A stretch of 32,000 bases of DNA from Erysipelotrichaceae bacterium (GTDB taxonomy: Bacteria > Bacillota_I > Bacilli_A > Erysipelotrichales > Coprobacillaceae). Positions 10,239 through 30,970 of this stretch are shown here, in pieces. A program made the translations under genes and the position numbers. Position 1 is the stretch's first letter. Each line of letters opens with the position of its first letter. The stretch lies in the NCBI GenBank assembly GCA_028698185.1, contig JAQVDW010000005.1:60001-92000 (forward strand), read 5' to 3'. The notes beneath the pieces are model-generated. The model searched no databases, was not told the origin of the DNA, and saw nothing but the letters and a program-made list of their open reading frames with translations.

Positions 10239-10246
10239 TAACAGAC

Positions 10247-12209: not shown

Positions 12210-12213
12210 GAAT

Positions 12214-12241
12214 TTGTCTGGGCTGTAAATTATGGTATAAT
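12214..12241 (+). promoter_or_regulatory. Putative extended -10 promoter of the second AraC regulator
   Basis: TTGTCT (12214-12219), 16 nt, TGgTATAAT (TG at 12233-12234, TATAAT at 12236-12241). Confidence 0.45.
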
Positions 12242-12275
12242 GCGATTACAAGGCAGTTATGAAAGAGGTGGCAGC

Positions 12276-13247: not shown

Positions 13248-13254
13248 ATCGATA

Positions 13255-13328
13255 TAACCTGATTGCAAATCAGGTTAATAAATAAGACAACCCACGACAT
13301 TACAAAACGGGCTGTTTTTTTTTATACT
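13255..13328 (+). promoter_or_regulatory. rhaB upstream control region: 9-bp-arm inverted repeat plus candidate -35/-10
   Basis: TAACCTGAT-tgcaa-ATCAGGTTA lies at 13255-13277. Candidate promoter elements are TTACAA (13300-13305), 17 nt containing a T9 run, then TATACT (13323-13328). The repeat could instead be the terminator hairpin of the AraC gene; this is ambiguous. Confidence 0.3.
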
Positions 13329-13345
13329 TGTTTTGAGGTGAGAAT

Positions 13346-14722: not shown

Positions 14723-14734
14723 AGGAGAATAGAG

Positions 14735-15994: not shown

Positions 15995-15995
15995 A

Positions 15996-16823
15996 ATGAA
16001 TATATTGGAATTGGAATTTATCAAAGGATTCATCCGGATGTGCGACGACGGGTTCAACCAGGGCTGGCATGAACGCAACGGCGGGAACCTGACTTACCGA
16101 ATCAAGGCTGAAGAGATTGCAAAAACAGCAGGAATGCTTGACGAATCCAAGGAATGGGTGGCCATCGGTACCGAAGTGCCTAGCCTGGCTGGGGAGTACT
16201 TCCTGGTTACCGGTTCGGGAAAATATTTCCGCAACGTGGCTCTTGCTCCTGAAACAAATATCGCGATCATCAAAATCGATGATACCGGAACAAAATACCA
16301 GCTGCAATGGGGTCTTGTCGATGGCGGGAAACCGACAAGCGAGCTGCCATCACATCTGATGAACCATGCGGTCAAAAAGGCGGCATCAAACGGTAAACAT
16401 CGGGTTATCTACCATGCCCACACGACCAATGTGATCGCCCTGACTTTCGTATTGCCTTTGCGTGATGAAGTTTTCACTCGGGAACTTTGGGAAATGGCTA
16501 CGGAATGTCCGGTTGTCTTCCCAGGGGGAATCGGAATGGTTCCTTGGATGGTGCCTGGAGGCAAAGCAATCGCTGTGGCAACCTCTAAACTGATGGAAAA
16601 ATACGATGTGGCGATCTGGGCTCATCACGGGATGTTCTGCTCAGGTGAGGATTTCGATCTGACTTTTGGTCTGATGCATACGGTTGAAAAATCGGCGGAA
16701 ATCCTGGTTAAAGTACTGTCAATCCAGCCAACCAAGCTCCAAACTATCCAGGCCGATGAGTTCCGCGAATTGGCTAATGATTTCAATGTCAATTTGCCTG
16801 AAGAATTTCTGTTTGAAAAATAG
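15996..16823 (+). CDS. rhaD: Rhamnulose-1-phosphate aldolase
   Basis: This is a class II aldolase with GWHERNGGNLTYR, SELPSHLM and YHAHTTNVIALT. I place the start at ATG 15996, 1 nt after the rhaA stop. The ORF-track start at 15885 overlaps rhaA. Confidence 0.9.
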   Translation: MNILELEFIKGFIRMCDDGFNQGWHERNGGNLTYRIKAEEIAKTAGMLDESKEWVAIGTEVPSLAGEYFLVTGSGKYFRNVALAPETNIAIIKIDDTGTKYQLQWGLVDGGKPTSELPSHLMNHAVKKAASNGKHRVIYHAHTTNVIALTFVLPLRDEVFTRELWEMATECPVVFPGGIGMVPWMVPGGKAIAVATSKLMEKYDVAIWAHHGMFCSGEDFDLTFGLMHTVEKSAEILVKVLSIQPTKLQTIQADEFRELANDFNVNLPEEFLFEK

Positions 16824-16837
16824 GAGGGGGAACAAAG

Positions 16838-17995
16838 ATGTCAAAAAGATTTATATTAAACGAAACCAGCTACCATGGTAGCGGTGCAATCAAGGAAATT
16901 GTAAGCGAAGCAGTTTCCCGTCAATTCAAAAAAGCCCTTATTGTCACTGACAAGGACCTGGTGAAATTCCAGGTGGTCAAAAAAGTCACTGACCTGTTGG
17001 ACGAGGCGGGACTGGCATACGAGATTTTCGACGAAGTCATGGCCAATCCGACCATCGAACTGGTTACCAATGGAGTCGCTGCCTTCAAAAAAAGCGGGGC
17101 CGACTACATGATCGCCATCGGGGGCGGGTCACCTCAGGATGCGGCCAAGGCGATCGGAATCATCATCAACAATCCAGAATTCGCCGATGTGAGATCTTTG
17201 GAAGGAGTGGCGCCGACCAAAAACAAATGCGTTCCGATTATTGCAGTGGCAACGACAGCTGGAACCGCAGCCGAAACGACAATCAACTACGTCATCACCG
17301 ACGTCCAAAACAAGCGCAAGTTCGTCTGCGTCGATGTCCATGACATCCCGGTTGTGGCGATCGTTGATCCGGACATGATGGCTTCGATGCCAAAAGGACT
17401 TACTGCGGCTACCGGCCTTGATGCCTTGACTCATGCGATTGAAGGGTATACGACTCTAGGAGCGTGGGAACTCGCTGATACTCTCAATCTTAAAGCGATC
17501 GGACTGATTGCAAGAAGCCTGGAAGCAGCCTGCCAGAACGATCCCAAAGGTCGAGAAGACATGGCTTTGGGTCAATATATGACCGGAATGGCTTTCTCGA
17601 ACGTGGGACTGGGTGTGGTCCATGGGATGGCTCATCCACTAAGCGCATTTTACGACACGCCTCATGGCATCGCCAATGCCGTGCTGCTTCCTTACGTGAT
17701 GGAGTACAACAAGGACTTCACCGGTTCGAAATTCAGGGAAATCGCCAGAGCGATGGGTGTGAGTGGTGTCGACGCCATGAGCGAAGCACAGTACAAGCAA
17801 GCAGCTATCGATGCTGTTGTCACATTGTCTAAAAACTGCTCAATTCCTCAGACCTTGAGGGAAATCGGTGTCAAGGAAGAAGACCTGGAAGCCTTGAGCG
17901 AAGCGGCTATGGCCGATGTGTGCACCGGGGGTAATCCGCGTCCTTGCCAAAAGAGCGAAATCCTGGATCTATATAAAAAAGCATATAACGGTTGA
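16838..17995 (+). CDS. fucO: Lactaldehyde reductase (iron-containing alcohol dehydrogenase, 1,2-propanediol oxidoreductase)
   Basis: It belongs to the Fe-ADH family (GGGSPQDAAKAIG, LTHAIEGY, HGMAHPL). It is 385 aa and is the last gene of the rha operon, the usual position for the lactaldehyde-reducing step. AGGAGGGGG lies upstream. Confidence 0.85.
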   Translation: MSKRFILNETSYHGSGAIKEIVSEAVSRQFKKALIVTDKDLVKFQVVKKVTDLLDEAGLAYEIFDEVMANPTIELVTNGVAAFKKSGADYMIAIGGGSPQDAAKAIGIIINNPEFADVRSLEGVAPTKNKCVPIIAVATTAGTAAETTINYVITDVQNKRKFVCVDVHDIPVVAIVDPDMMASMPKGLTAATGLDALTHAIEGYTTLGAWELADTLNLKAIGLIARSLEAACQNDPKGREDMALGQYMTGMAFSNVGLGVVHGMAHPLSAFYDTPHGIANAVLLPYVMEYNKDFTGSKFREIARAMGVSGVDAMSEAQYKQAAIDAVVTLSKNCSIPQTLREIGVKEEDLEALSEAAMADVCTGGNPRPCQKSEILDLYKKAYNG

Positions 17996-18112: not shown

Positions 18113-18528
18113 CGCCAAATGTAAAATTGCAGTCAATGACCTGAGTGGAAAAGGTAATTAGAAACGAAACAGAAGGAAAGATAAGATTTTTATGGAAAAA
18201 TTTCAAGTTAGATTCAATTCCGTAGAGGGATTTGGAGCAGATAATATCTGTTAAGCTAAGCACAAGGCACTCCGCTATCTAATCAATATCTGTATGCTAA
18301 TATTCTAGGCTGAGAAGATAACCAATGTCAATTACGAATTCCATGCAAAAGAGCGAGCGGAAAAGGATTGTATTATTGGAAGTTATTTTTTCCATAGTAA
18401 TGCAGTATCCAAGTATACACATAAATGTAGTAAAAACCTATATCTTGCATGTAAACATCTCAAGACCTCAGTACAATGCAATTGTGCCTGGTTGATGACA
18501 GTCGTTAAATCGTAATTTCTCCTTACAG

Positions 18529-18579
18529 AAAATAAAAGTAGGCACAAATTTGTAACTATCACTACAAACTTATGCCTAT
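18529..18579 (-). terminator. Intrinsic terminator of the jelly-roll protein gene (also motif copies A/A')
   Basis: The arms 18539-18554 and 18563-18578 pair at 14/16 positions on the plus strand. On the minus-strand RNA the two mismatches become G-U pairs, giving a continuous 16-bp stem followed by a U-rich tract (plus-strand AAAATAAAAG at 18529-18538). Confidence 0.6.
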
Positions 18580-18601
18580 AACATTTGAAATATTCGGAAT
18601 G

Positions 18602-19228
18602 CTATTTTTTTGTGATTTTCAGATCTTTGAAATATGCTTCGGTGCCGATTTCCGACCAAAGTCCGATTCCTCCGGTCGCATCGCTGCCATGGAACATGTC
18701 GTTGACAATCAGGGCCGGCTGGGATGCGTTGTTGACAAAAAGTAGGGCTTTTGAACCTTCGACTTCGATTTTCAAATCAATCCAGGCTTCAAATTCCATG
18801 TCCGCATAGGCTTCATATTTGCCCGCGGCAATCTCGCGCAATCTGTCATATTTGTATTCCGGATATGAATAGTATTGGATTGAATGGTTGCGGCGCAGCT
18901 GGTCATCGCAGCGGGCGTTCAGTGGCCGGACGTAAATCGATTCATAAGCGGTATTGGCAGAGTTGATGCGAAATGCCACTCCTAAAAAGCCACGGGCATG
19001 AGCGGGAGCGTCTTTCAACAGGCGGCTGAACACTTTGACTTCGATGATGCCATCATGGAAATCATCGCTACCATTGAATCGGGCGTAGGTCGGTTCATCG
19101 TCTTTGATGACTTCCGGGCTTTTCAATACTTTCAATACCGGGTCGCCATCGAGCGGTGTTTCTTCGACTGTGGAATTGACAGCGGTGAAATATTCAAGTG
19201 TCATTGGGATAAAATCAGTTTTGTTCAT
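18602..19228 (-). CDS. Hypothetical cytoplasmic protein, concanavalin-A-like/LamG jelly-roll (DUF1080-like) fold suspected
   Basis: The sequence has a beta-rich repeat pattern. The C-terminal signature ...LLFVNNASQPALIVNDMF.GSDATGGIGLWSEIGTEAYFKDLKI resembles the terminal strands of DUF1080/3-keto-disaccharide-hydrolase-type lectin folds. There is no signal peptide. The second ATG (19228) is preferred because GGAG is only ~2 nt from the first ATG (19234). This is a weak family call. Confidence 0.45.
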   Translation of the reverse strand: MNKTDFIPMTLEYFTAVNSTVEETPLDGDPVLKVLKSPEVIKDDEPTYARFNGSDDFHDGIIEVKVFSRLLKDAPAHARGFLGVAFRINSANTAYESIYVRPLNARCDDQLRRNHSIQYYSYPEYKYDRLREIAAGKYEAYADMEFEAWIDLKIEVEGSKALLFVNNASQPALIVNDMFHGSDATGGIGLWSEIGTEAYFKDLKITKK

Positions 19229-19295
19229 TTGCATTCTCCTTTGTTTTTCATGATCACACTATAGATTATAGCATCATAAAAAAGGATGTAAATAA

Positions 19296-19387
19296 GGCAC
19301 AATTTTGTAACTGTGGAATTTTTTGAAATAAGTCGTTTCAAATCGAGATTCAAATTAAGTTCTCTTGGTTACATATTTGTGCCTACT
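19296..19387. repeat. Inverted pair of the GGCACAAWTTTGTAAC motif (copies B and C) in the divergent promoter region
   Basis: GGCACAATTTTGTAAC lies at 19296-19311, and GTTACATATTTGTGCCTACT at 19368-19387 is its reverse complement (14/16 complementary), with 56 nt between them. The same motif occurs at 18537-18556 (AGTAGGCACAAATTTGTAAC) and inverted at 18563-18579. Confidence 0.6.
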
Positions 19388-19459
19388 TAACATTGATAAC
19401 TTCCCGGTGTATACTTTTAGCGGATTGGAAAATCCAAATCAAGAAAAAGGAGAAATATC

Positions 19460-19678
19460 ATGACAACATTCCAAAAAAAATTAAGTGCCCAAGCTTTCTT
19501 TAGAGCGGCGGCAACTGAGGCTTCATCATCTTGTGGCAGCGCCTGTGGTGCTGGCGATAAGGAAGTCAAAGAAGAAACTCCAAGTGCTTGTGGCAGTGCC
19601 TGTGGTGCTGGCGACAAGGAAGTCAAAGAAGAAACTCCAAGCGCTTGTGGCAGCGCTTGTGGTGCCGGGGACAAATAA
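19460..19678 (+). CDS. Cys-rich repeat peptide, candidate RiPP precursor (ACGX-repeat-like; three CGSACGAGD modules)
   Basis: AAGGAG lies 8 nt upstream of the ATG. The 72-aa product is a leader-like MTTFQKKLSAQAFFRAAATEASSS followed by (CGSACGAGDKEVKEETPSA)x2 and CGSACGAGDK. All 7 variable codons among the DNA repeat copies are synonymous in this frame. The gene lies directly upstream of a radical SAM/SPASM gene. Confidence 0.8.
   Translation: MTTFQKKLSAQAFFRAAATEASSSCGSACGAGDKEVKEETPSACGSACGAGDKEVKEETPSACGSACGAGDK
19532..19675 (+). repeat. 57-bp tandem repeat, 2.5 copies, coding for the peptide modules
   Basis: The copies are 19532-19588, 19589-19645 and a partial copy at 19646-19675. Copies 1 and 2 differ at 3 of 57 nt. 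Confidence 0.95.
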
Positions 19679-19703: not shown

Positions 19704-19730
19704 AGCTGACAGTCTTGTCAGCTTCTTTTA
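19704..19730 (+). terminator. Hairpin/attenuator between the precursor gene and the maturase gene
   Basis: AGCTGACA-gtct-TGTCAGCT (8-bp stem) is followed by TCTTTTA. It is 26 nt after the peptide stop and 56 nt before the rSAM ATG. Confidence 0.55.
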
Positions 19731-19785: not shown

Positions 19786-20811
19786 ATGGAATATTTCGCA
19801 TTTCAATTTCATATAACCGACCAGTGTGACCAGCGGTGCGAGCACTGCTACATCTTTGCCGAGGACAACAACATCTGCTTGAAAGAGATGGAATTGGAGG
19901 ATGTTGAAAAAGTCATCACCAATTGTGTCGACATGTGTACGAGAATGGAACGACTGCCTTATTTTTACATTACCGGAGGCGATCCGATCCTCCATCAGAA
20001 TTTCTGGGATATCGCAAAACTGCTCAAAGAGCGCAACATCCCTTTTGGCATCCTGGGCAATCCGTTCCATCTCAACGATGAAACATGTGCCCGGTTGGCC
20101 CAACATGGCTGCAAGAAATACCAGCTTTCGATCGATGGGATGGAAAAAACCCATGACTTCATCCGCAAGCCTGGTTCGTTTGCGACCACCCTTGCCAAGA
20201 TTCCGGTTCTCAAAAAAGCCGGTATCGATGTGGCCATCATGACGACAGTTTCTGGAACAAATATAGATGAGATGGAAGACATTGTCGACCTGGTTGTCGA
20301 ACACGAAGCGGACATTTTCGCTTTTGCCCGCTACTGCCCGACCAGCTTTGAAAAGGAAACCCACATTGAACCATTGGAATATCGGAATTTGCTTGACCGG
20401 TTGTGGCAAAAGTTCGAAACGTACCAGGATGGGCCCACTACCTTCAACCTCAAGGACCATCTATGGAATCTCTACCTTTATGAAAAGGGCCTGTATCAGA
20501 TTCACGAAGGATTGGAACAAGACAAAATCCATGACGGATGCAACTGCGCCAACTGTCATATGACGATTTTGCCTGACGGTGCTGTCTATGCCTGCCGCCG
20601 GATGGAAAGCAATATCGGCAATGTATTGAGCCAGAGCATCTATGATCTTTATCATGGCAAGGAAATGGAAGCATACCGCCAATATGACAAGTTTGAAAAA
20701 TGCGCCAAATGCGAGCTGCTCAACTTCTGCCGCGGGTGTCCGGCGGTGGCCTATGGCTATACCCACGACATGTACGCGCCCGACCCGCAGTGCTGGAAAG
20801 AAATCGATTAG
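19786..20811 (+). CDS. Radical SAM/SPASM-domain peptide-modifying enzyme (no N-terminal RRE domain)
   Basis: The CX3CX2C motif is at residues 14-21 (CDQRCEHC), followed by a GGDP (GGEP-like) motif. The C-terminal SPASM signature is CHMTILPDGAVYAC ... CAKCELLNFCRGC ... C. The protein is 341 aa, and AGAGGA lies 8 nt upstream. Confidence 0.9.
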   Translation: MEYFAFQFHITDQCDQRCEHCYIFAEDNNICLKEMELEDVEKVITNCVDMCTRMERLPYFYITGGDPILHQNFWDIAKLLKERNIPFGILGNPFHLNDETCARLAQHGCKKYQLSIDGMEKTHDFIRKPGSFATTLAKIPVLKKAGIDVAIMTTVSGTNIDEMEDIVDLVVEHEADIFAFARYCPTSFEKETHIEPLEYRNLLDRLWQKFETYQDGPTTFNLKDHLWNLYLYEKGLYQIHEGLEQDKIHDGCNCANCHMTILPDGAVYACRRMESNIGNVLSQSIYDLYHGKEMEAYRQYDKFEKCAKCELLNFCRGCPAVAYGYTHDMYAPDPQCWKEID

Positions 20812-20824: not shown

Positions 20825-21418
20825 ATGGAACAAACCAATGAAGTAATTGAATGTTTGCAAAAGCGCCGGACCTACCGCCAGTTCCAGGACCGGTCAATTG
20901 AAAGGGAGAAACTCGACCTGATTGTCAATGCCGGTCTGGTCGCCCCCAATGCCGGAGGCCGCCAGGGCCCGGTATTCATCGTTTGCCAGGATAAGACAGT
21001 CAATACATTGTTGGGAGAAGCCAGACGGCAGGCCAGTTCCATTCCAACCGGACGTCACGTTTCTAAGGAACAGCCCAGTGTGATCGACAATCCAAACATC
21101 AAAAACAGTTTCTATGGGGCTCCGGTGGTTGTCACCATCGCCGCACCGAAAAATTTCATTTTCAGTCAAAGTGATGCGGCTATGGCAGCCCAAAATATGA
21201 TTATCGCGGCCACCTCCCTGGAAATTGCATCTTGTTTTATCGGTAGGGCGGAAACGACTTTCAATACCGGAATCGGCGTAGTTATCTGGAATGATTGGAA
21301 TATCGCAGAAAATCTCAAACCGTTCTGTCATATCCTGCTTGGCTACCCGGCGGGAATTCCGCCCAAACCTAAACAAATCAAGGAAAACCGGGTTTTCTTC
21401 GTCAACCAGGACCAATAA
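20825..21418 (+). CDS. Nitroreductase-family FMN oxidoreductase
   Basis: It has LQKRRTYRQFQDRSIEREKLDLIVNAGLVAPNAGGRQ, a typical nitroreductase N-terminus, and is 197 aa. I place the start at ATG 20825 after GAGGAGGA. The ORF-track start at 20642 overlaps the rSAM gene. Confidence 0.85.
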   Translation: MEQTNEVIECLQKRRTYRQFQDRSIEREKLDLIVNAGLVAPNAGGRQGPVFIVCQDKTVNTLLGEARRQASSIPTGRHVSKEQPSVIDNPNIKNSFYGAPVVVTIAAPKNFIFSQSDAAMAAQNMIIAATSLEIASCFIGRAETTFNTGIGVVIWNDWNIAENLKPFCHILLGYPAGIPPKPKQIKENRVFFVNQDQ

Positions 21419-22367
21419 TGCATGATATCTGGAATCCCTGGCATGGCTGTGTGAAAATCAGCGAAGGCTGTGCCAACTGCTACATGTATTTTCTCGACAA
21501 GAAAAACGGAAAAGATGGGGCAGTGATCTATCGTTCCAAAAACAACTTTGATTACCCTTTGAAAAGGACCGCCAGGGCGAATACAAAATCAAAAGTGGCG
21601 AAATAATCCGGGTCGCGATGACTTCGGACTTCTTCCTCGAACAAGCCGACCAGTGGCGTGATGAGGCCTGGAAAATCATGGAAGCCCGTAGCGATGTCAT
21701 CTTTTTCCTGTTGACCAAACGGGCCCAACGGATCAATGAGTGCCTGCCCGAAAGTTTCCAAAACGGCCGATGGGATATGGCGAATATCTTCATCAATGTC
21801 TCGTGCGAGAATCAGCGCCTGGCCGATTTGCGGATCCCCTATCTTTTGAAAGTCCCGATAAAGCACAAGGGGATCATGGCGGCGCCTTTTATCGGGCCAA
21901 TCAACATCGAAAAGTATCTGGCAACCGGAATGATTGAACAGGTGATTTGCGGTGGGGAGAATTATGGCGGGGCGAGGATGTGCGACTTTGACTGGGTCAG
22001 GGATCTGGGGGGCCAATGCCGGGACCATCAAGTCAAGTTCGCTTTCATCGAAACCGGGTCTATTTTTTGCAAGGATGGCCAGCGTTACAAGATTGCCCCA
22101 AAAGCCATGCAAAGCCGTCTGGCCTACAAATCGAAAGCCAGTCTTGAAGGCAAGAAGATAACTTTCGATCTGCATGATGTCAATAAAAATCCGATTCCCA
22201 AAGACAAGTTGCATGTGCCCCATTACCGGGAAACTTGCCGCTATTGTGGCAGCAGATCCATCTGCAATGGTTGCAGTGACTGTGGCCGATGTAATGGCGA
22301 AATAATCACTCAGGAACAAATGAAAATCCATGACCAGGAATATTTCAAAAAAGGAGCTAAAAAATGA
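21418..22367 (+). pseudogene. DUF5131 (phage Gp37/Gp68-like three-Cys) protein with a Cys-rich C-terminal tail, interrupted by a single frameshift
   Basis: Fragment 21418-21606 carries the family hallmark WNPWHGCVKISEGCANCY. Fragment 21618-22367 carries SDFFLE, FFLLTKR, GGENYGGARMCDFDWVRDLGGQC and a tail CRYCGSRSICNGCSDCGRC. The second frame is open back to 21552. Inserting one A into the A4 run at 21562-21565 joins them as ...DYPLKKDRQGEYKIKSGEIIRVAMTSDFF... The start overlaps the nitroreductase stop (TAATG). Confidence 0.75.
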
Positions 22368-23335
22368 AAGCAGTATTGTTGGAGAAACCGATCAAAGCCA
22401 ATGAAATGAAAATTGTCGAAGTGCCAAAGCTTAAAATCAGACCAGGATGGGTTTTGATCAAAGTCAAAGGTTTCGGGTTGAACCGGGCCGAATTGATTTT
22501 GCGCAATCATGAAATCGCAGCGGATTACATCCAGAAGCCGGTTGTTCCGGGTATCGAGTGTGTCGGGGAAATTCATGATGGAGGCGACAGCCGTTTCAAC
22601 AAGGGCGATAAAGTAGTCGCCTTGATGGGCGGAATGGGCCGGAGTTTTAACGGCAGCTACAGTGAGTATGCCTTGTTGCCGGCCCACCATGTGTTCAAGG
22701 TGGAAACCGCAATGGATTGGGTCGAATTGGCTGCGATTCCCGAAACGTTTTACACGGCCTACGGTTCGCTGTTCGAATCGCTCCAGCTCAAAGGAGATGA
22801 TATCCTGCTTGTCCATGGGGCGACCTCGGCGCTTGGTTTGGCAGCCATCCAGCTGGCCAAAACAGTGGGAGCTACGGTTATTGGCACCTCACGCAAGGAA
22901 GAACGCCTGGACTTGTTGCGGGAGGTTGGTTGTGACCATGCCCTTGTGGATGATGAAAACCTGGTTGCCAAGATCAAGGATATATATTCAAAGGGCATCA
23001 CGAAAATTTTGGAATTGGTCGGAGCCCATACGATCGCCAAAACAGCCCAACTGCTTAGAATTGGGGGAATTGTCTGTGTCACTGGCAAACTGGGCGGGGG
23101 CCAGACTAACGGCTTGGATCTGATCCGCCTGCTGCCAAATGGCACCTATCTTTGTGGTTTCTACAGCAATTATCCGACCCAGGCGGTGATTGATGATATC
23201 TTCAGGATCATCGAACAACACAACATCAAGCCGGTAATTGGCCGGGTCTTCGACTTTGAGCAGATCGGTGAAGCCCATGAGGTGATGGAAAACAACCAGG
23301 CCCAAGGGAAAATTGTCATCAGAATGAGTGAGTGA
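22364..23335 (+). CDS. Medium-chain (zinc-type) dehydrogenase/reductase, quinone-oxidoreductase-like
   Basis: It has a GroES-like N-terminus (MKAVLLEKP...PGWVLIKVKGFGLNRAEL...PGIECVGE) and a Rossmann motif (VHGATSALGLAAIQLAK). It is 323 aa. The start overlaps the DUF5131 stop (ATGA). Confidence 0.85.
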   Translation: MKAVLLEKPIKANEMKIVEVPKLKIRPGWVLIKVKGFGLNRAELILRNHEIAADYIQKPVVPGIECVGEIHDGGDSRFNKGDKVVALMGGMGRSFNGSYSEYALLPAHHVFKVETAMDWVELAAIPETFYTAYGSLFESLQLKGDDILLVHGATSALGLAAIQLAKTVGATVIGTSRKEERLDLLREVGCDHALVDDENLVAKIKDIYSKGITKILELVGAHTIAKTAQLLRIGGIVCVTGKLGGGQTNGLDLIRLLPNGTYLCGFYSNYPTQAVIDDIFRIIEQHNIKPVIGRVFDFEQIGEAHEVMENNQAQGKIVIRMSE

Positions 23336-23446: not shown

Positions 23447-23773
23447 CTATCCGACGAAGTCCTTGTACTGGTTGCCCCATTCTTCCATCGATTTGAACAA
23501 GGGTCTAAGACTGTTGCCCATGTCGGTGAGCGAATACTCCACTTTCGGGGGCACGACCGGGTAGGCCTTGCGGTCGACAATGCCATCGGCTTCCAATTGG
23601 CGCAGGTTGTCGGTGAGCACCTTCTGGGAAATTCCTGGCAGGCTGTTTTTCAGCTCGCCAAAACGGCAGGTCGAAACCAGAAGATTCCGGATGATCAATA
23701 ATTTCCATTTGTTGCCGATGATCTCAACCATGGTGGCCACCGGGCAAGCAGGCAGTTCGTCTTTGGTAAGCAT
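23447..23773 (-). CDS. HxlR (DUF24/MarR-like) family transcriptional regulator
   Basis: The signature is CPVATMVEIIGNKWKLLIIRNLL...RFGELKNSLPGISQKVLTDNLRQLEADGIV. It is 108 aa with an N-terminal Cys10, and GGAG lies upstream. Confidence 0.9.
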   Translation of the reverse strand: MLTKDELPACPVATMVEIIGNKWKLLIIRNLLVSTCRFGELKNSLPGISQKVLTDNLRQLEADGIVDRKAYPVVPPKVEYSLTDMGNSLRPLFKSMEEWGNQYKDFVG

Positions 23774-23894
23774 AATTTTCTCCTTAGTATCTGATATGGT
23801 GTAAGTATAAAATATAATGTATGGATTGTCAATATGGTCCCGCTGATTAACCTATCTCGTTGGCCATAGTCACTTTCAGGTAACTAGATAATAA

Positions 23895-23910
23895 AAAAGT
23901 GCGTACTTTT
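23895..23910. promoter_or_regulatory. Near-perfect 16-bp palindrome in the HxlR/sirtuin divergent intergenic region (candidate operator)
   Basis: AAAAGTGCGTACTTTT has 7 of 8 positions self-complementary. It is followed by a candidate extended -10, TGgTAAGAT, at ~23924-23932 on the plus strand. Confidence 0.3.
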
Positions 23911-24023
23911 GCGAATGAATTATTTTTGGTAAGATGAATTTGGCTCAAGGAGGGCCGATGAAAATCTAATATTATAATCAGATTCAAGATGGGGATCAAT
24001 CGGTTATGGAAGGAGTTGTAATC

Positions 24024-24944
24024 ATGGAATTTTACAGCAATTATTGTCAGAAAAAAAATAAAAGTCAAAATTATCCGAGTTTGGAACAGAGAGTCAAAAC
24101 TGTTCGGGAATTGCTTGAAGAGGCCGAGTATGTTGTCATCGGGGCCGGTTCGGGTTTGTCGTCGGCGGCCGGTCTTGACTTTGGCGGCGAGCGGTTTGAA
24201 AAATATATGGGCGAATTCGGATCAAGGTATGGCTATCATGACATGTATAGCGGTGATTTTTACAACTACCAGACGCGTGAGGAATTCTGGGCGTTCGAGG
24301 CCAAGACAATCCTGGTTAACCGCTATGAGGTGCCCGGTTTGAAACTGTATCACAAGTTGTTTGACTTGATCAAGGATAAAAACCATTTCGTGATCACAAC
24401 CAATGTCGAAAGCCAGTTTGCCAAATCGGGATTCGATTCCAATCGCATCTTCGCGACCCAGGGTGATTACAGCAAGCTTCAATGTGGTGGCGCCTGCCAC
24501 GACACCCTGTATGACAATGAAAAGTTGGTCAAAGAAATGGTTGCCAAGACAAGAGACTGTGCCATCCCGACTGAACTGATTCCCAAATGTCCGATATGCC
24601 ATAGGGAAATGAAGGTCAACTTGCGCAGCGATGGCTACTTTGTCGAAGACAAATCATGGCATGAGGCCTGCAGCCGCTATGAATCATTCATCAGCTCCAT
24701 CAATAAGGCACCGGTGGTTTATCTGGAATTCGGGGTCGGCTACAATACGCCGGGCATCATCCGCTATCCCTTCGAACGCTTCACATACGCCAACCCCAAC
24801 GCCCATCTAATCCGCTTCAACCGGGACTATCCCGAAGGAATCACTGAAAACAAAGACAAGACGATCGGTTTCACCGAGGATATGAATATGGTCCTCGCCA
24901 TGTTATTCGAACCGACAAAAGGAGAACAGGAAAATGAGCTTTAA
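24024..24944 (+). CDS. Sir2-family protein, class-M-like sirtuin (probable NAD-dependent protein ADP-ribosyltransferase, SirTM type)
   Basis: It has the NAD-binding loop VIGAGSGLSSAAGLDF and Zn-ribbon Cys pairs CGGAC and CPIC. FATQGDYSKLQC occupies the position of the canonical sirtuin xxHG motif, so Gln replaces the catalytic His. ATG 24024 is preferred because GGAAGGAG lies 8 nt upstream; the ORF-track ATG 24006 is also possible. Confidence 0.75.
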   Translation: MEFYSNYCQKKNKSQNYPSLEQRVKTVRELLEEAEYVVIGAGSGLSSAAGLDFGGERFEKYMGEFGSRYGYHDMYSGDFYNYQTREEFWAFEAKTILVNRYEVPGLKLYHKLFDLIKDKNHFVITTNVESQFAKSGFDSNRIFATQGDYSKLQCGGACHDTLYDNEKLVKEMVAKTRDCAIPTELIPKCPICHREMKVNLRSDGYFVEDKSWHEACSRYESFISSINKAPVVYLEFGVGYNTPGIIRYPFERFTYANPNAHLIRFNRDYPEGITENKDKTIGFTEDMNMVLAMLFEPTKGEQENEL

Positions 24945-25473
24945 AGAAATAGGAATTGAAGAATTGGAAATAAACCCGATGACAATGATCGGAGGCGACT
25001 GGTGGTTGATCAGTGCTGGTAATGAACAAAATGGTTACAATGCGATGACGGCCTCATGGGGGCATCTAGGCGCAATCTGGGAAAGACCTGAAGGCAAAGC
25101 CCACATGGGATTGCCGACTGCCTGTGTCTATTTGCGCCCGCAACGCTATACCAAGGAATATCTTGAGCGCGAGGACATTTTCACACTGAGTGTGTTCGAA
25201 AGCAATCACAAAAGGGCCCTAGGCTACCTTGGCAGCCACAGCGGCCGCAATGAAGATAAAATCGCCAATGCCAACCTGACACCAGTATTCGATCAGGGCA
25301 CAATCTACTATGAACAGGCTAAAATGGTCTTTGTCTGCAAGAAGATCTACAATGCCCCATTGCAAGAAAGCGGCTTTGTCGATACCAGCCTGGTTGAAAA
25401 CAACTACCCGAAAAAAGATTTCCACGAAATGTATATCGGAGAAATTGTCAAAGTCCTGGTCAAGAATGACTGA
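24934..25473 (+). CDS. Flavin reductase-like (FMN-binding split-barrel) protein
   Basis: It is 179 aa, and ...NPMTMIGGDWWLISAGNEQNGYNAMTASWG... is typical of the flavin-reductase-like domain family. It overlaps the sirtuin gene end by 11 nt. Confidence 0.75.
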   Translation: MSFKEIGIEELEINPMTMIGGDWWLISAGNEQNGYNAMTASWGHLGAIWERPEGKAHMGLPTACVYLRPQRYTKEYLEREDIFTLSVFESNHKRALGYLGSHSGRNEDKIANANLTPVFDQGTIYYEQAKMVFVCKKIYNAPLQESGFVDTSLVENNYPKKDFHEMYIGEIVKVLVKND

Positions 25474-26203
25474 TGATTTGGATAACTTGACTCAAGAGCT
25501 CAACGATTTCGTCCAGGAAAAAGGGATCGATATTTTCGGGATCGGGGATGTCGACTATCTCAACCAGATGGCCCGACCCGGCCGCCGGCTAGAAGATCTG
25601 TTTCCCGGTGGCCAGGCGGTGTTGATCTTTGGCTGTGGCATAGACCATTCCCTGGCGCGGGCTTGGGTCAAATCCGGAAGAGGAAAATATCTGACTCTGA
25701 CGATGACTGCCTTGGAAAACCGTAAGTGGCTGATCAAGGATTTTCTTGCTAGAAAAGGCTACCGCACATTCGGGGGTGAATTTCACGGCGGAGGAATTTG
25801 GGAAACCGGAATCCGTCTGGGAGAAGCCGGAGCCAGTGCCGGTCTGGGCTACATTGGCAAAAACAATATGCTTATCACTCCCAAATACGGACCCCGGGTC
25901 AACCTGGCGTACCTGGTCACCGATGCCCCGCTGCAAACGACAGTGGTCACTCCCAAAAATGAATGTGGCACCTGTGCGATCTGCGAAAAATATTGCACCA
26001 GCAAGGCGATTTTAGGTGATGGTTATTTCCATGGCCGGGCCTGCGAGAGTGTCATCAACTGCATGGCAAACAAGATCCACCTGACCAGTCAGGTCACGAT
26101 GGATTGCGATATGTGTCAAAGGATGTGTCCCCAAGGGGAAATCAAATATTCAAAAATAGAACGTCAGGGTACCTGGTGGGACAAATTGGAGCAATATCAA
26201 TGA
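25466..26203 (+). CDS. Epoxyqueuosine-reductase (QueG)-like 2x[4Fe-4S] protein
   Basis: It has GLGYIGKNNMLITPKYGPRVNLAYLVTDAPL, then CGTCAICEKYC and CDMCQRMCP ferredoxin-type motifs. I place the start at ATG 25466 (ATGACTGA overlap with the upstream stop). The ORF-track start at 25310 lies inside the previous gene. Confidence 0.7.
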   Translation: MTDDLDNLTQELNDFVQEKGIDIFGIGDVDYLNQMARPGRRLEDLFPGGQAVLIFGCGIDHSLARAWVKSGRGKYLTLTMTALENRKWLIKDFLARKGYRTFGGEFHGGGIWETGIRLGEAGASAGLGYIGKNNMLITPKYGPRVNLAYLVTDAPLQTTVVTPKNECGTCAICEKYCTSKAILGDGYFHGRACESVINCMANKIHLTSQVTMDCDMCQRMCPQGEIKYSKIERQGTWWDKLEQYQ

Positions 26204-26927
26204 AAGCGAACTGGAAAATCCGCAGGCTGCCCAAAGACTTGGCTATCCTGGAAAAATATCTTGAAAAGACCCCAAAGCAGCAGGAACGCCGCGAGCTGAC
26301 GATGCTTGTCTAGGAGGCGGCTTTTGCCAAGGGAATCGAGCTTTTCCACATCCGTGATCTCAGCTGCGGATCGCAGGACATTGATTTTGGATGGGACTTT
26401 CCTCATGCCCATGCGGTTGTTTACCTGGGCATGGTGGTCAAGGACCCATTTCTACTGAGTTGCCAGTCGGTTCCCGGGAACAAGACCGGACTGTATTCGA
26501 TCGCAGCTTTGCAAGTGGAAAATTACCTTTGGGAATTTGCCGGGATCCTTGAGCTTCAAGGCTACCGGGTCAAAAAAATGGTTGGAATACCCGACCTGAT
26601 TTCCAGTTCGCCAAGGCCCTGGCCAACAGCGGCAGGGGGATGGTTGGGAAAAACGGCCGCTATTTGATTGGTGATTTTGGTTGCAAAGTCTGTCTTGGCT
26701 ATCTGGTTACCGATGCCCCGCTCCAGGGGGACGATTACCGGGATACCCAAGTAGTGCTGACCAATCCCTGTCAAAACTGCACTGTCTGCCTTGATGTCTG
26801 CCCAACCCAGGCCATCTTGCCAGGTCACATCGATCAAGACAAGTGCCTGGAAGGATGTCTTGCCTGCATGGAACATTGCCTGGCATCCCAAATAAGATGG
26901 GAAAAACTGCCTTGTGGCGAATTATGA
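26200..26927 (+). pseudogene. Second QueG-like 2x[4Fe-4S] paralog, disrupted by an in-frame TAG and a frameshift
   Basis: The frame from ATG 26200 is interrupted only by TAG 26311-26313 and stays open to 26667. The downstream frame (open from ~26580, ORF-track 26640-26927) continues the homology: FQFAKALANSGRGMVGKNGRYLIGDFGCKVCLGYLVTDAPL, CQNCTVCLDVCP, CLEGCLACMEHC. It is colinear with the paralog at 25466-26203. The frameshift is near 26590-26600. Confidence 0.6.
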
Positions 26928-26948
26928 CAGATTGAAGGAGAAAAGCTG

Positions 26949-27791
26949 ATGGAAAACCTGACCCAAAACCAACGACTGGATTGTCTGATTGACTGGCTCA
27001 AAGGGGAGTCTTATCATTACCGCAATTTGAAAGTCGATGGCGATCATGAAAAAAAGAAAGCAACCCTCAGGGCGTTGATGAATATCCGGATGCCCCGGAA
27101 TGTCCCGATGTCAATCATGACCATCCAGGATGAATATTTGCAACAAGAACGCCAAGCCACAGGTGTCGTCGGCCCTGATGCCATTCCTTCAATCGAAGAA
27201 ACATTAGGATCTGAATTGCCGTTTGGTTCCAAACTGGCCTTATGGCAGGGGGACATCACCACCCTGGAAGTCGATGCGATCGTCAATGCCGCAAACAACC
27301 AGCTGCTGGGCTGTTTCATTCCCAATCATCACTGCATCGACAACGCGATCCATTCCGGTGCGGGAATGGCCTTGCGGCTGGAGTGCGCCAATTACATGAA
27401 CAGCAGGCAAAAAATCCACGGCGACCAATATCTGGAGCCAACCGGTCAGGCAATGATCACCAATGGCTACAATCTCGCAGCTTCGTATGTGATTCATACA
27501 GTCGGCCCGATTGTCACCGGAAAGCTCGAAAATAGCCACCGCATCGCATTGAAAAGCTGTTATCACAACGTGCTGGAACGGGCCCGGGAAAATGGGCTAC
27601 GGACCTTGGCGTTGTGTTGCATCTCGACCGGGGAATACCATTTCCCCAATCTCGAAGCAGCCCATATCGCTGTGGCAACTGTCCGCGATTACCTGGAAAA
27701 TCACGGTGACTGTTTCGATTTGATCATCTTCAACGTGTTCAAGGACCAGGATTATGAATGTTACAAGAATGTACTGTCGTCAATGAAATAG
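26949..27791 (+). CDS. Macrodomain protein, protein-ADP-ribose hydrolase (sirtuin-linked type with N-terminal extension)
   Basis: The macro core is LALWQGDITTLEVDAIVNAANNQLLGCFIPNHHCIDNAIHSGAG ... YVIHTVGP ... ISTGEY. It is preceded by a ~90-aa extension. GAAGGAG lies upstream. Confidence 0.85.
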   Translation: MENLTQNQRLDCLIDWLKGESYHYRNLKVDGDHEKKKATLRALMNIRMPRNVPMSIMTIQDEYLQQERQATGVVGPDAIPSIEETLGSELPFGSKLALWQGDITTLEVDAIVNAANNQLLGCFIPNHHCIDNAIHSGAGMALRLECANYMNSRQKIHGDQYLEPTGQAMITNGYNLAASYVIHTVGPIVTGKLENSHRIALKSCYHNVLERARENGLRTLALCCISTGEYHFPNLEAAHIAVATVRDYLENHGDCFDLIIFNVFKDQDYECYKNVLSSMK

Positions 27792-27803
27792 GAGGATTCG
27801 GAC

Positions 27804-28412
27804 ATGGATTTCATCGATATTTCCAAAAAGCGCCAGACCGTGCGCAAGTTTTCCAATGAACCGGTCGAACCAGAAAAACTGGAAAAAATATTGGAGGCGG
27901 GAAGGTGGGCACCTACGGCTGTCAATGGCCAACCCCAGCGGATTCTTGTCCTGGACAATCCCGAGAACCTCATGAAGGTGAAGCAGTTCTGCAGTTTTGG
28001 CTATGACCAGAAGTATGTCGATCTGGCCCATGAGTGCGACGATTCGAAAAACGGGAAAATCAACTTGTACTATGGAGCCCCGCTGGTTCTGTTTGTCTGC
28101 TATGACCAGGATGCCTGCTGGAGACATCCCCAGACCGGAGAGAGTTCCGGAGCGACCGATGCGACAATCGTCGCCACCCATCTGATGCTTGAGGCGGCCA
28201 GTTTGAATCTTGGCAGCGTGTGGATCAGCTATTTTGATGAAACCAAAGCCCGGGAATTGTTGAACATTCCCAAGCAGTGGCAACCCGTATGCATGCTGTA
28301 TATCGGCTATCCGGCCGCGGATTTTGTGCCCAACACCCATCTAGGAGGCAAACGCCTGCCAATCGGGAAAACCTGTTTTTACAACGGGGTTCCCGGGCAA
28401 CACAATTCGTGA
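27804..28412 (+). CDS. Nitroreductase-family FMN oxidoreductase (second copy in the window)
   Basis: It has KKRQTVRKFSNEPVEPEKLEKILEAGRWAPTAVNGQPQRILVL and is 202 aa. AGGAGG lies upstream, 12 nt after the macro gene stop. Confidence 0.85.
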   Translation: MDFIDISKKRQTVRKFSNEPVEPEKLEKILEAGRWAPTAVNGQPQRILVLDNPENLMKVKQFCSFGYDQKYVDLAHECDDSKNGKINLYYGAPLVLFVCYDQDACWRHPQTGESSGATDATIVATHLMLEAASLNLGSVWISYFDETKARELLNIPKQWQPVCMLYIGYPAADFVPNTHLGGKRLPIGKTCFYNGVPGQHNS

Positions 28413-28538
28413 ATCAACAATCGCCCAGCCGGGCCATGAAATATCTTGACCTGGCTAAATTTAATTAAGTCTACTTTTTGCGCTCTGGACTCGAATCAAG
28501 AGCGCAATAATCAACTGGAAAATACAGGAGGAACAATT

Positions 28539-29759
28539 ATGGAACAGGAATTCAATATGACAGAACTGAACCGAACGAAACAAAAATTTTTAGGTGAGCG
28601 GGGCTTTGTCGGGTTCATCGCCTTTCTGGGAGCTTTTATCCCGCTGTCAACCGATATCTATTTGCCGGCGATGCCTGGCATGGTTGCCAATTTGAATACG
28701 ACAATCTCCCTGGTAAATCTGACCCTGGTGCTGTTTTTCGTCTTTTATGCGATCGGCACCTTGTTCTGGGGGCCGCTAAGCGACAAATATGGCCGCAAGC
28801 CAGTTTTGCTTGTGGGGCTTGGCATCTATCTTGTTTCCAGTGTCTTATGTGCGATGGCCTGGAATGTTTATGTCCTGATCGCCTTTAGGATTTTCCAGGC
28901 GATCGGTTGCGGGGCGGCCACGGCGGTTTCCACAGCGATGATCAAGGACACGTTTGAAGGAGCCAAGCGAGTCAAAATCCTGGCGATTGTCCAAACGATG
29001 GCTACAACTTCGCCAATCGTCTCTCCGGTTATCGGGGCCTTCATTTTAAGTGCCATTTCCTGGCGGGGGGCTTTCATTTTTCTGGCCCTGATTGGAGCTT
29101 TGAGCGTTCTGGGCGCCTTGGTCATGCAGGAGACGAATAATTCAAAATCCCAAGAGAAGATTTTCAAAACTATCGGTCGGCTGGGAGTCGTGGCCAAAAA
29201 CAAAGCTTTCATGTCTTTGCTATTGATGTTCTCATTGTTGAACGTGGCGTTCATGTCTTTTATCACGGCCTCTTCATTCATCTATGTTGACGGTTTCGGG
29301 GTCAGTGAACAAATGTACAGTTATTACTTCTCGGCCAATGCGGTTTTCCTGCTTTTAGGTCCAATGGTCTATCTGTTTTTGGCAAGATTCATTTCCACCA
29401 AGAACCTAATCAAGATCGCCTATTCAATTATCGTCTTGAGTGGAATCATGGTGGTTACCATCGGAACGAAATCACCGCTGTTGTTTTGTCTGGCTTTGAT
29501 TCCGGCTTCTCTTGCTGGCAATATGATCGGACCACCGCGGACCAATCTGATGATCGAACAGGTTGATGGGGATACTGGAGCTGCTTCGTCTTTGATCAAT
29601 GGCGTGTTTACAATATTCGGCAGCTTCGGAATGCTTTTGATTTCCTTCAATTTTGTCGACAAGATTATTTTGATGGGAAGCATGTACATCCTGGCGGGAA
29701 CAATAACATTGGCAGCCTGGATTATCTTGGCACGTAAATCATACATCATACAAAATTAA
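28539..29759 (+). CDS. MFS drug/metabolite efflux transporter, Bcr/CflA-like
   Basis: It is a 12-TM profile protein. LGAFIPLSTDIYLPAMPGM and GPLSDKYGRKPVLL are typical of the Bcr/CflA subfamily. I place the start at ATG 28539 after CAGGAGGA. The ORF-track start at 28446 has no RBS. Confidence 0.85.
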   Translation: MEQEFNMTELNRTKQKFLGERGFVGFIAFLGAFIPLSTDIYLPAMPGMVANLNTTISLVNLTLVLFFVFYAIGTLFWGPLSDKYGRKPVLLVGLGIYLVSSVLCAMAWNVYVLIAFRIFQAIGCGAATAVSTAMIKDTFEGAKRVKILAIVQTMATTSPIVSPVIGAFILSAISWRGAFIFLALIGALSVLGALVMQETNNSKSQEKIFKTIGRLGVVAKNKAFMSLLLMFSLLNVAFMSFITASSFIYVDGFGVSEQMYSYYFSANAVFLLLGPMVYLFLARFISTKNLIKIAYSIIVLSGIMVVTIGTKSPLLFCLALIPASLAGNMIGPPRTNLMIEQVDGDTGAASSLINGVFTIFGSFGMLLISFNFVDKIILMGSMYILAGTITLAAWIILARKSYIIQN

Positions 29760-29771
29760 AGTAAAATATGC

Positions 29772-29802
29772 TTGACTGGAGTTGACTTCAATGCCGTATG
29801 AT
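29772..29802 (+). promoter_or_regulatory. Third MerR-type promoter (19-nt spacer) with an operator related to the 3064-3079 palindrome
   Basis: TTGACT (29772-29777), 19 nt, TATGAT (29797-29802). TGGAGTTGACTTCA (29777-29790) matches TGGAGTCGACTCCA at 12/14 positions. Confidence 0.5.
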
Positions 29803-29824
29803 TGAATGTAGGAGGAATATTAAG

Positions 29825-30943
29825 ATGACTTATACATTTGACGACATTAAAAAATTAGGCTTCGGTCTGATGCGGCTGCCTAAAATCGGCGATGCGATTG
29901 ATATCGAACAAACCAAAGTTATGGTTGATGACTTTCTGGCAGCGGGATTCACGTACTTCGATACGGCCTGGGCCTACAGTGGCTCCGAAGATGCCATCCG
30001 GCAGGCTTTGGTGGAACGTTATCCCAGGGATGCTTTCCAGCTGGCGACCAAGAATGCGGCCTGGATCAATTGCAAAAACCGGGAAGAAGCGATTGATCAG
30101 TTTGAAACTTCACTTCGACAAACCGGAGCTGGTTATTTCGATTTCTACCTGCTCCACAACCTGGGAGAATCAAGAACCCATTTCTTCGATGATTTCGACA
30201 TGTGGACTTTCGTTCAGGAGAAAAAAGCTCAAGGGCTGATCAAGCATGTCGGTTTCTCGTTCCATTCGACTCCCGAAGAATTGGAAGAAATCCTGATCGC
30301 CCATCCGGAGGTCGAATTCGTCCAACTTCAGATCAACTATGCCGACTGGGAAAATCCGGCAATCCAATCCCGGGCTTGTTATGAAATGGCCCGCAAATAC
30401 AACAAGGCGGTAATCGCCATGGAACCGGTCAAAGGAGGCATGCTCGCCAACCCTCCCCAACCCGTGGCCGAAGTTTTCCAGGATGCCAATCCTGAAGCTT
30501 CACTGGCTTCGTGGGCGATCAAGTTCGCGGCCAATCTTGATGGGGTGGTTACTGTCCTTTCGGGAATGAGCGACGTTGAACAGATGGCTGACAATCTGGA
30601 TTACATGAAGGATTTCACCAAATTGGATGAAGGTGAAATGGCAGTCATTGCCAAAGCCCAGGAAGAACTGGCCAGAATCGACATCATCCCATGTACGACT
30701 TGTGATTACTGTGCTAAGGTCTGTCCGATGAATATCGGAATTTCCGGTTCATTCACGGCCATGAACATGATGATTGTCTATGGTGACAAGGCCAAAGCCA
30801 AACAACAGGAAAACTGGCTAGTTACCCGCCATGACAAGCAACAGGCAAGCGAGTGCATCAAGTGCGGTCTTTGCGAGGAAGTCTGCCCCCAACATATCAA
30901 AATCCGCGACCAGTTGGATCGCGTAGTTGCAAAATTGCTTTAA
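29825..30943 (+). CDS. Aldo/keto reductase fused to a C-terminal 2x[4Fe-4S] ferredoxin-like domain (intact paralog of the 1555-2748 remnant)
   Basis: The AKR N-terminus has LGFGLMRLP, YFDTAWAY and LATK. The C-terminus has CTTCDYCAKVCP and CIKCGLCEEVCP. I place the start at ATG 29825 after AGGAGG (29810-29815). It is 372 aa. Confidence 0.85.
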   Translation: MTYTFDDIKKLGFGLMRLPKIGDAIDIEQTKVMVDDFLAAGFTYFDTAWAYSGSEDAIRQALVERYPRDAFQLATKNAAWINCKNREEAIDQFETSLRQTGAGYFDFYLLHNLGESRTHFFDDFDMWTFVQEKKAQGLIKHVGFSFHSTPEELEEILIAHPEVEFVQLQINYADWENPAIQSRACYEMARKYNKAVIAMEPVKGGMLANPPQPVAEVFQDANPEASLASWAIKFAANLDGVVTVLSGMSDVEQMADNLDYMKDFTKLDEGEMAVIAKAQEELARIDIIPCTTCDYCAKVCPMNIGISGSFTAMNMMIVYGDKAKAKQQENWLVTRHDKQQASECIKCGLCEEVCPQHIKIRDQLDRVVAKLL

Positions 30944-30970
30944 GAGTTGGAATCCCAACTCTTTTTTTTT
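30942..30970 (+). terminator. Intrinsic terminator
   Basis: AAGAGTTGG-aatc-CCAACTCTT followed by a T-run extending to 30970. Confidence 0.8.

Follow-up and report, generated by a model that had tools for sequence, protein, structure and literature searches.

The stretch of DNA analyzed here (the window) comprised 32,000 nucleotides of contig JAQVDW010000005.1 of an Erysipelotrichaceae bacterium (assembly GCA_028698185.1, positions 60,001 to 92,000 of the forward strand). The subject of the study was a chain of genes at positions 24024-28412 of the window, which opens with a gene for a class M sirtuin (SirTM) and also contains a gene for a zinc macrodomain protein (Zn-Macro, or Macro). The original prediction described this chain as an operon of six open reading frames (ORFs), in which an ADP-ribosylation writer and its eraser are embedded among redox genes and lack their canonical target module, gcvH-L and lplA2. 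The genes and sites found from the sirtuin gene onward were as follows.

24024..24944, + strand: SirTM, class M sirtuin, predicted writer (PDB 5A3A, E = 3e-54)
24934..25473, + strand: flavin reductase-like (flavoredoxin-like) protein (Pfam PF01613; PDB 2D5M flavoredoxin, E = 5e-6)
25466..26203, + strand: Fe-S-a (Fe-S-1 of the original prediction), short QueG/RdhA-like protein with 2x[4Fe-4S] motifs (PDB 5D6S QueG, E = 1e-12)
26200..26927, + strand: Fe-S-b (Fe-S-2), pseudogene, paralogue of Fe-S-a (nonsense codon and 1-nt deletion)
26949..27791, + strand: Zn-Macro, predicted eraser (ADP-ribosyl hydrolase; NF003163, 293 bits)
27804..28412, + strand: nitroreductase-family protein, downstream copy (Pfam PF00881, E = 5e-34)
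28539..29759, + strand: MFS transporter, probably on the same transcript
29825..30943, + strand: aldo-keto reductase fused to 2x[4Fe-4S] (AKR-Fer4), probably the last gene of the transcript
30942..30963, + strand: intrinsic-terminator-like hairpin followed by a T-run

The tight packing of the chain on the + strand proved real, and its junctions were as first described: the SirTM and flavin reductase genes overlap by 11 nt, the overlap of the flavin reductase and Fe-S-a genes reads ATGACTGA, the start of Fe-S-b at 26200 lies inside an ATGA shared with the end of Fe-S-a, and gaps of 21 nt and 12 nt precede Macro and the downstream nitroreductase gene, respectively. The count of six ORFs did not stand, because Fe-S-b is a pseudogene. 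A ribosome-binding site, AAGGAG, is located 8 nt 5' of the SirTM start, and the same start, giving a protein of 306 aa, was called on sister contigs. No convincing + strand terminator was found between 24024 and the hairpin at 30942-30963; consequently, the MFS and AKR-Fer4 genes probably belong to the SirTM transcript, and the operon probably spans 24024 to 30943, which makes it larger than the unit first proposed. A Fer4 ORF (1555-1965) and a partial AKR/CMD ORF (2065-2748) (- strand) resemble a broken paralogue of AKR-Fer4. Past the right end of the window, a contig of the same species (L001, 15158-20240) carries a LysR gene and then a row of five aldo-keto reductase paralogues plus a ferredoxin, an array unusually dense in reductases.

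The sirtuin had no Pfam match at E <= 0.01, and its identity was therefore taken from PDB and NCBIfam. The phmmer comparison with PDB aligned residues 23-270 with SpySirTM (5A3A) at E = 3.4e-54, and 8RSN, a fungal macrodomain-SirTM fusion, followed at 2e-19 through its SirTM domain, whereas classical Sir2 reached only 0.07. The protein carries the class M hallmark, QG in place of HG, and its segments TTNVES, ATQGDY, and NLRSD align with TTNADN, HIQGEY, and NKRNE of SpySirTM, the Asn/Gln/Arg trio of the latter (N118, Q137, and R192) being matched by N127, Q146, and R201 of the window protein. Among 23 SirTM homologues, N127, Q146, and G147 were invariant and R201 was conserved in at least 90%; the four zinc-binding Cys residues were conserved as well. 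The Macro gene shares the strand of SirTM, and no terminator separates the two, in keeping with the linkage of class M sirtuins to a macrodomain gene of the same operon. The Macro protein scored 293.4 bits against the NCBIfam equivalog model NF003163 (protein-ADP-ribose hydrolase; cut-off 272), and its best PDB match was MorMacro of Methanobrevibacter oralis (8RSI, E = 4e-62), ahead of the S. aureus and S. pyogenes enzymes. A Cys/His/Cys zinc motif, followed by Dx3H, replaces the glycine-rich catalytic loop; this motif, GCFIPNHHCIDNAIH, corresponds in the alignments to GCFIPMHNCIDNIIH in MorMacro and GCMQANHDCIDNIIH in SauMacro. Both genes are under purifying selection, with dN/dS of 0.20 for SirTM and 0.24 for Macro between the window and a relative that is 95.6% identical (locus L093). 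Thus, matches to proteins of known structure and a curated family model bore out the SirTM/macrodomain pair, for which the predicted roles are those of an ADP-ribosyltransferase writer and an ADP-ribosyl hydrolase eraser.

A sirtuin gene in such a setting might instead encode an NAD-depleting component of anti-phage defence or a plain deacylase, which we consider very improbable. SIR2 domains are common in defence systems, and a DUF5131 gene of the window, described below, matched two PADLOC candidate-defence models (PDC-M30B and PDC-M41B); however, PADLOC gave no match for SirTM, Macro, or the redox genes, which makes a defence system unlikely, and the pair lies in a housekeeping redox context under an HxlR-type regulator, in a window with no mobile-element or defence-island features. 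The deacylase variant conflicts with the active site, where Gln stands in place of the catalytic His found in deacylases, a substitution common to all SirTMs.

The claim that the window contains neither gcvH-L nor lplA2 was upheld by two kinds of search. Pfam scans of all window ORFs of at least 90 aa revealed no GcvH or LplA domain, nor any BPL_LplA_LipB domain, and tblastn searches of the window gave a best E of 4 for E. coli GcvH and of 0.12 for E. coli LplA. For comparison, the surroundings of the nearest SirTM homologues (45-63% identity) were collected as 80 species-representative loci, along with several metagenomic relatives; in the related loci that were searched, neither GcvH nor LplA was present within ~10 kb of the match. 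The absence had been taken as a departure from the canon, and in this respect the original prediction was mistaken, since it is an already known feature of such pairs. Bacterial SirTM/macro pairs were described either as independent operons or in extended operons, and the type with GcvH-L and LplA2 was restricted to Lactobacillales and Staphylococcaceae (Rack 2015, PMC4518038); the pair alone, the extended operon, and the fusion were later distinguished as contexts (Ariza 2024, PMC11490716). The names used for the context of GcvH-L-less pairs in these two papers are "operon" and "lone pair" (Rack 2015, PMC4518038; Ariza 2024, PMC11490716).

The window locus resembles the GcvH-L-less pairs of Enterococcus faecalis, Treponema pedis, and Methanobrevibacter oralis in having a QG sirtuin and a zinc macrodomain in the same operon and no gcvH-L or lplA2. 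It differs from them in that the writer and eraser are not adjacent but have three genes between them; separation of any kind was found in only 7 of 80 loci and there was due to other genes. The extended operon of Staphylococcus aureus and Streptococcus pyogenes consists of gcvH-L, macro, sirTM, and lplA2 together with LLM and OYE oxidoreductases; the window operon shares with it the writer and eraser families, the association with flavin oxidoreductases, and a link to oxidative-stress biology, whereas GcvH-L, LplA2, LLM, and OYE are missing from the window and the oxidoreductases are of other families (neither PF00296 for LLM nor PF00724 for OYE appeared in Pfam scans of the main ORFs). The window SirTM was ~40% identical to SpySirTM, as estimated by eye from the alignment, versus 50-73% to the sirtuins of the nearest GcvH-L-less pairs.

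A target encoded at a distance, be it the canonical GcvH or another lipoylated or thiol-bearing protein, with the local genes being just co-regulated stress enzymes, can be put forward tentatively. Most SirTM loci consist of the pair plus a regulator only, published work regards what these pairs modify as unknown and perhaps encoded outside the operon, and in S. aureus the lipoyl thiols of GcvH-L are protected when Asp27, the neighbour of the lipoyl dithiol, is ADP-ribosylated. Three points weigh in the other direction: Zn-Macros encoded outside the extended operon were unable to demodify GcvH-L in vitro, and their targets were described as elusive (Ariza 2024, PMC11490716); the window macrodomain is closest to MorMacro and not to the Staphylococcus and Streptococcus enzymes; and in the alignment with SauMacro it has Thr-Gly opposite an Arg-Arg that may belong to a basic GcvH-L-binding patch.

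The position of the pair among redox genes was confirmed, as the flavin reductase, QueG-like Fe-S, and nitroreductase families were all recovered (Flavin_Reduct, Fer4_16/QueG-like, and Nitroreductase). Fe-S-a aligned with epoxyqueuosine reductase QueG (5D6S, E = 1e-12), in agreement with its first description as QueG-like, and more weakly with reductive dehalogenases; its score against TIGR00276 was 60 bits, which is under the cut-off of that model. The layout of the pair was counted in 80 loci, the window included, in which SirTM was detected by the ORF caller, and gene families were counted in 81 loci, namely, the 80 relatives and the window. Macro was present in the SirTM operon in 67 of the 80 loci, adjoining SirTM in 60 and standing apart from it in 7; one gene served as the spacer in six of these loci (DUF1848 in five and DUF5131 in one), and an ABC transporter in one. 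The operon of the closest relative (L009; SirTM 73% identical) consists of SirTM, flavin reductase, Macro, nitroreductase, MFS, and AKR-Fer4 genes, with no Fe-S genes. A tandem of Fe-S genes beside SirTM was found in 3 of the 81 loci: the window, Acetobacterium (L028), and Parasporobacterium (L033). The Fe-S-a orthologues of the latter two showed 52-56% identity, and Fe-S-a and Fe-S-b there form an old paralogue pair. The window type of flavin reductase was likewise found in 3 of the 81 loci; 6 further loci had a second Flavin_Reduct family. A flavin, Fe-S, nitro, or quinone reductase of some kind was nearly always co-encoded with SirTM. Thus, the idea of a redox partner holds in a weakened form, namely, that some redox enzyme almost always accompanies the pair; the particular proteins that lie between the writer and eraser in the window are lineage-specific.

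Other recurrent partners of the pair were observed in the same set of loci. DUF1848 was encoded in the SirTM operon in 16 of the 80 loci, including the five in which it separates SirTM from Macro. DUF5131 was encoded in the SirTM operon in 6 of the 80 loci, and an SPL-like radical SAM protein occurred in Bacillaceae loci. Such Cys-rich partners recur in L011 (7954-8883), L035, L053, L066, L105, and L124, among others. Nothing relevant on a link of DUF1848 or DUF5131 to SirTM pairs was found in the searchable literature.

Fe-S-b is interrupted by an in-frame CAG>TAG change at 26311-26313 and by a 1-nt deletion near 26585, which split it into pieces of 37, 78, and 95 aa. A sequencing error was ruled out as the cause, as the same lesions, with the same 37-aa truncation, were found in six independent assemblies of the species. 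In strain L005 the frameshift was present and the TAG was absent; together with the lesions shared by the six assemblies, this shows a true pseudogene that decayed stepwise. The relative at locus L093 had neither of the window lesions but a different one, a deletion of 10 nt within the second cluster motif of Fe-S-b, which indicates a separate decay in a sister lineage. Fe-S-b is consequently dispensable in the window species. Long-term relaxed selection was also considered and found no support, as the dN/dS of Fe-S-b was 0.23, similar to that of its neighbours. In the same relative (L093, 2322-3952), the radical SAM/SPASM gene is broken into fragments of 151 and 190 aa, with only 78 aa left of the upstream nitroreductase, so that different accessory genes of the cluster are broken in different strains.

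These observations bear on the suggestion that the target is one of the co-encoded proteins (the flavin reductase, Fe-S-a, Fe-S-b, or nitroreductase) and that the pair would thereby switch an electron-transfer chain. Several facts are in keeping with it: start and stop codons overlap, a hint that translation is coupled from SirTM up to and including Fe-S-b, the old Fe-S-a/Fe-S-b pair adjoins SirTM behind the same promoter box (see below) in Acetobacterium and Parasporobacterium, and a fused protein of PNPOx-type FMN and 2x[4Fe-4S] domains adjoins SirTM in several loci with the ACGX genes described below, so that a flavin/Fe-S partner recurs in another form. Gene-neighbourhood comparison nevertheless gave the suggestion little support, and we regard it as distinctly unlikely. 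The Fe-S pair and the window-type flavin reductase each occur in only 3 of the 81 loci, and the second Flavin_Reduct family in six others; the closest relative manages without Fe-S genes; Fe-S-b was inactivated independently in two lineages that retained SirTM and Macro; and most pairs, such as that of Methanobrevibacter, have only a regulator between or beside them.

The region upstream of SirTM contains a regulatory gene and a putative promoter, and a similar promoter lies ahead of a second operon.

23447..23773, - strand: HxlR-family regulator, divergent from the SirTM operon (Pfam PF01638, E = 2e-34)
23869..23935, + strand: putative composite operator/promoter of the SirTM operon (GTCAC-N6-GTAAC at 23869-23884, box, and -10-like site)
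19379..19415, + strand: putative promoter region of the ACGX operon (conserved box with -35-like and -10-like sites)

The N-terminal sequence of the HxlR protein reads MLTKDELPACPV, with an N-terminal Cys in the motif ACPV, and the nearest NCBIfam models were those of the redox regulators RrpB and RrpA, both scoring under the cut-off. The spacer between the HxlR and SirTM genes is 250 nt. In 38 of the 80 loci an HxlR gene lay next to the SirTM operon in divergent orientation, and in 47 one lay within six genes of it. Comparison of 106 HxlR upstream regions yielded two recurrent motifs that together make up a single composite element: GTTAC-N6-GTAAC, ~13 nt, AAAAAGTGC(C/G)TACTT, 17 nt, and TATAAT, where the AAAAAGTGC(C/G)TACTT half overlaps a TTtACA -35 site. 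The second motif was then tested as the 10-mer GTGCSTACTT, of which 79 copies were found in 64 of ~165 loci versus ~9 expected (2.3 Mb). Nearly all copies were intergenic, in one orientation, and directly upstream of SirTM/Macro operons or of operons for ACGX peptides and radical SAM enzymes, with TATAAT ~31 nt downstream.

The window has three copies of the 10-mer (at 23899, at 19379, and at 18536 on the - strand) versus 0.03 expected. Ahead of SirTM, the box AAAAAAGTGCGTACTT (23893-23908) overlaps a -35-like site and is followed by a -10-like TAAGAT at 23930-23935; ahead of the ACGX operon, the box GTGCCTACTT (19379-19388) overlaps a -35-like TTAACA and is followed by a -10-like TATACT at 19410-19415. 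As the same box precedes both operons, they were read as one stress regulon. We infer, from homology and from background knowledge of HxlR/DUF24 proteins, that the HxlR protein acts on this box and that the inducing signal would be a stress. An inverted-repeat tool found nothing in the HxlR-SirTM spacer, and the palindrome AAAGT-N4-ACTTT taken alone was not significant in the window. The third copy, again GTGCCTACTT, lies at 18536-18545 (- strand) in the gap 18264-18601, with a -10-like TACGAT 31 nt further on, and points leftward to a 72-aa ORF (18263-18045) that has no family match.

The window regulator can be compared with those of the HxlR/DUF24 thiol-based regulons, namely, YodB, CatR, and HypR of B. 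subtilis, QorR of C. glutamicum, and RrpA/RrpB of C. jejuni. Common to the window locus and these regulons are a small, divergently encoded winged-helix regulator with an N-terminal Cys and a membership of nitroreductases, quinone reductases, flavin reductases, and exporters. In no HxlR/DUF24 regulon known to us do the members include a writer/eraser pair for ADP-ribosylation or a peptide system with a radical SAM enzyme. The searchable literature contained no mention of an HxlR regulator, this promoter box, or an ACGX neighbour in connection with SirTM pairs, and no mention of the ACGX system.

The second operon lies to the left of the HxlR gene and contained the following genes.

19460..19678, + strand: ACGX-repeat peptide, 72 aa, with three SACGSACGAGDK units (TIGR04341, 49.7 bits; cut-off 28)
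19786..20811, + strand: radical SAM/SPASM enzyme of the ACGX system (TIGR04340, 575.8 bits; cut-off 400; Pfam Radical_SAM and SPASM)
20825..21418, + strand: nitroreductase-family protein, upstream copy (Pfam PF00881; gene call on a sister contig)
21418..22367, + strand: DUF5131 gene, frameshifted (1-nt deletion in an A-run near 21561)
22364..23335, + strand: zinc-ADH-type quinone oxidoreductase, PIG3-like (Pfam ADH_N/ADH_zinc_N; TIGR02824, 200 bits, under the cut-off)

A distance of 107 nt separates the ACGX peptide gene from the radical SAM gene; the two lie 4 kb upstream of the SirTM operon, and both pass the models of the ACGX system (TIGR04341 and TIGR04340), which has been defined by bioinformatics alone. 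The repeat units of the peptide, PSACGSACGAGDK, have paired Cys residues followed by a conserved acidic residue (ACGAGD). The DUF5131 gene is intact in sister strains (316 aa). A hairpin, AGCTGACAGTCTTGTCAGCT, followed by a T-run is present at 19704-19723, between the peptide and radical SAM genes, and is a possible attenuator setting the ratio of peptide to enzyme. A 210-aa ORF at 18602-19234 (- strand), with no Pfam or NCBIfam match, was retained in all contigs of the species. Further to the left, a rhamnose utilisation cluster (6631-17995) encodes a PTS EIIC, alpha-L-rhamnosidase, esterase, AraC regulator, FGGY kinase, RhaA isomerase, class II aldolase, and Fe-alcohol dehydrogenase.

The linkage of the two systems was evaluated in both directions. 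Starting from SirTM, ACGX peptide and radical SAM genes were found beside it in 8 of ~85 loci recovered with SirTM queries, including those of a Treponema, a Marinilabiliales, a Vallitaleaceae, and a Neobacillus. Starting from ACGX, 80 metagenomic loci with ACGX-type radical SAM genes were collected and dereplicated at 90% identity, and those with 6 kb or more of sequence on the downstream side, 28 in number, were retained; SirTM was nearby in 16 of them (~57%), Macro in 15, HxlR in 23, and a quinone oxidoreductase or nitroreductase in 26. At least eight gene orders were distinguished among the SirTM-linked ACGX loci, some of which interleave SirTM and Macro with the peptide genes, and the ACGX-linked sirtuins were scattered over the SirTM neighbour-joining tree. 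The frequent linkage of ACGX to SirTM/Zn-Macro, HxlR, and quinone or nitro reductases was thus found in the present study.

A further candidate for the target, or carrier, is the matured ACGX-repeat peptide; it would stand in for lipoyl-GcvH-L, and the radical SAM enzyme would take the place of LplA2. The strong two-way linkage is in line with this, as are gene orders such as that of locus L136 (SirTM, peptide, radical SAM, FMN/Fe-S protein, nitroreductase, and Macro), the promoter box common to both operons, and the paired Cys followed by Asp/Glu in ACGAGD, which resembles the Asp27 acceptor next to the lipoyl dithiol of GcvH-L. Co-regulation alone, however, would explain the linkage, and ACGX is near only ~10% of SirTM loci; we therefore consider this candidate rather unlikely. 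Carried further by analogy, the same idea would make GcvH-L-less SirTM pairs and the ACGX/radical SAM genes two halves of one HxlR-controlled module, in which the thiols of the matured peptide are protected or gated during stress via reversible ADP-ribosylation of the neighbouring Asp/Glu, a speculation to which we likewise assign a low probability.

The reading that we prefer, with a probability of roughly 0.7, is that SirTM and Zn-Macro form a reversible mono-ADP-ribosylation pair of the known type without GcvH-L and LplA2, which is part of a stress regulon and whose intervening redox genes are lineage-specific cargo and not an obligate substrate. On this model, electrophile or oxidant stress would lead the HxlR-type regulator to turn on the regulon, SirTM would use NAD+ to put ADP-ribose on an acidic residue of a target other than GcvH-L, and Zn-Macro would take it off. 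The pair would open one of the two operons of the regulon, the other comprising the ACGX peptide, radical SAM, nitroreductase, DUF5131, and quinone oxidoreductase genes; in the Erysipelotrichaceae lineage of the window, it would have been split by the insertion of the flavin reductase and QueG-like Fe-S-a and Fe-S-b genes.

Several points weigh against this reading. The statements on function, which cover the activities, the target, the pairing of the regulator with its box, and the inducing signal, derive from homology and gene context. The negative result for gcvH-L and lplA2 covers the 32-kb window, and a distant pair may exist elsewhere in the genome. Both censuses drew on the 80 hits with the highest similarity to proteins of the window itself; their frequencies may thus be inflated and may not be valid family-wide. 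The promoter of the ACGX operon in the window holds the second half of the composite element only; GTYAC-N6-GTAAC, the first half, was not found upstream of the ACGX peptide gene. Given that ACGX is present near only about a tenth of SirTM loci, its link to SirTM cannot be obligatory. Finally, the dN/dS of Fe-S-b, being no higher than that of its neighbours, points to a recent loss and says little on long-term dispensability.

GcvH-L is the only known SirTM substrate, and the targets of GcvH-L-less pairs have been stated to be unknown (Ariza 2024, PMC11490716). The present analysis revealed a conserved HxlR-type promoter/operator ahead of such pairs and their frequent linkage to ACGX genes and to DUF1848 and DUF5131. 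This provides a short list of candidate substrates, a candidate regulator site, and cultured carriers such as Parasporobacterium paucivorans DSM 15970, Mesobacillus maritimus, Niallia nealsonii, and an Acetobacterium, which makes the question of what these pairs modify directly testable. If the ACGX peptide were indeed the carrier, the substrate class of GcvH-L-less pairs would be identified and the ACGX system would be given a function.

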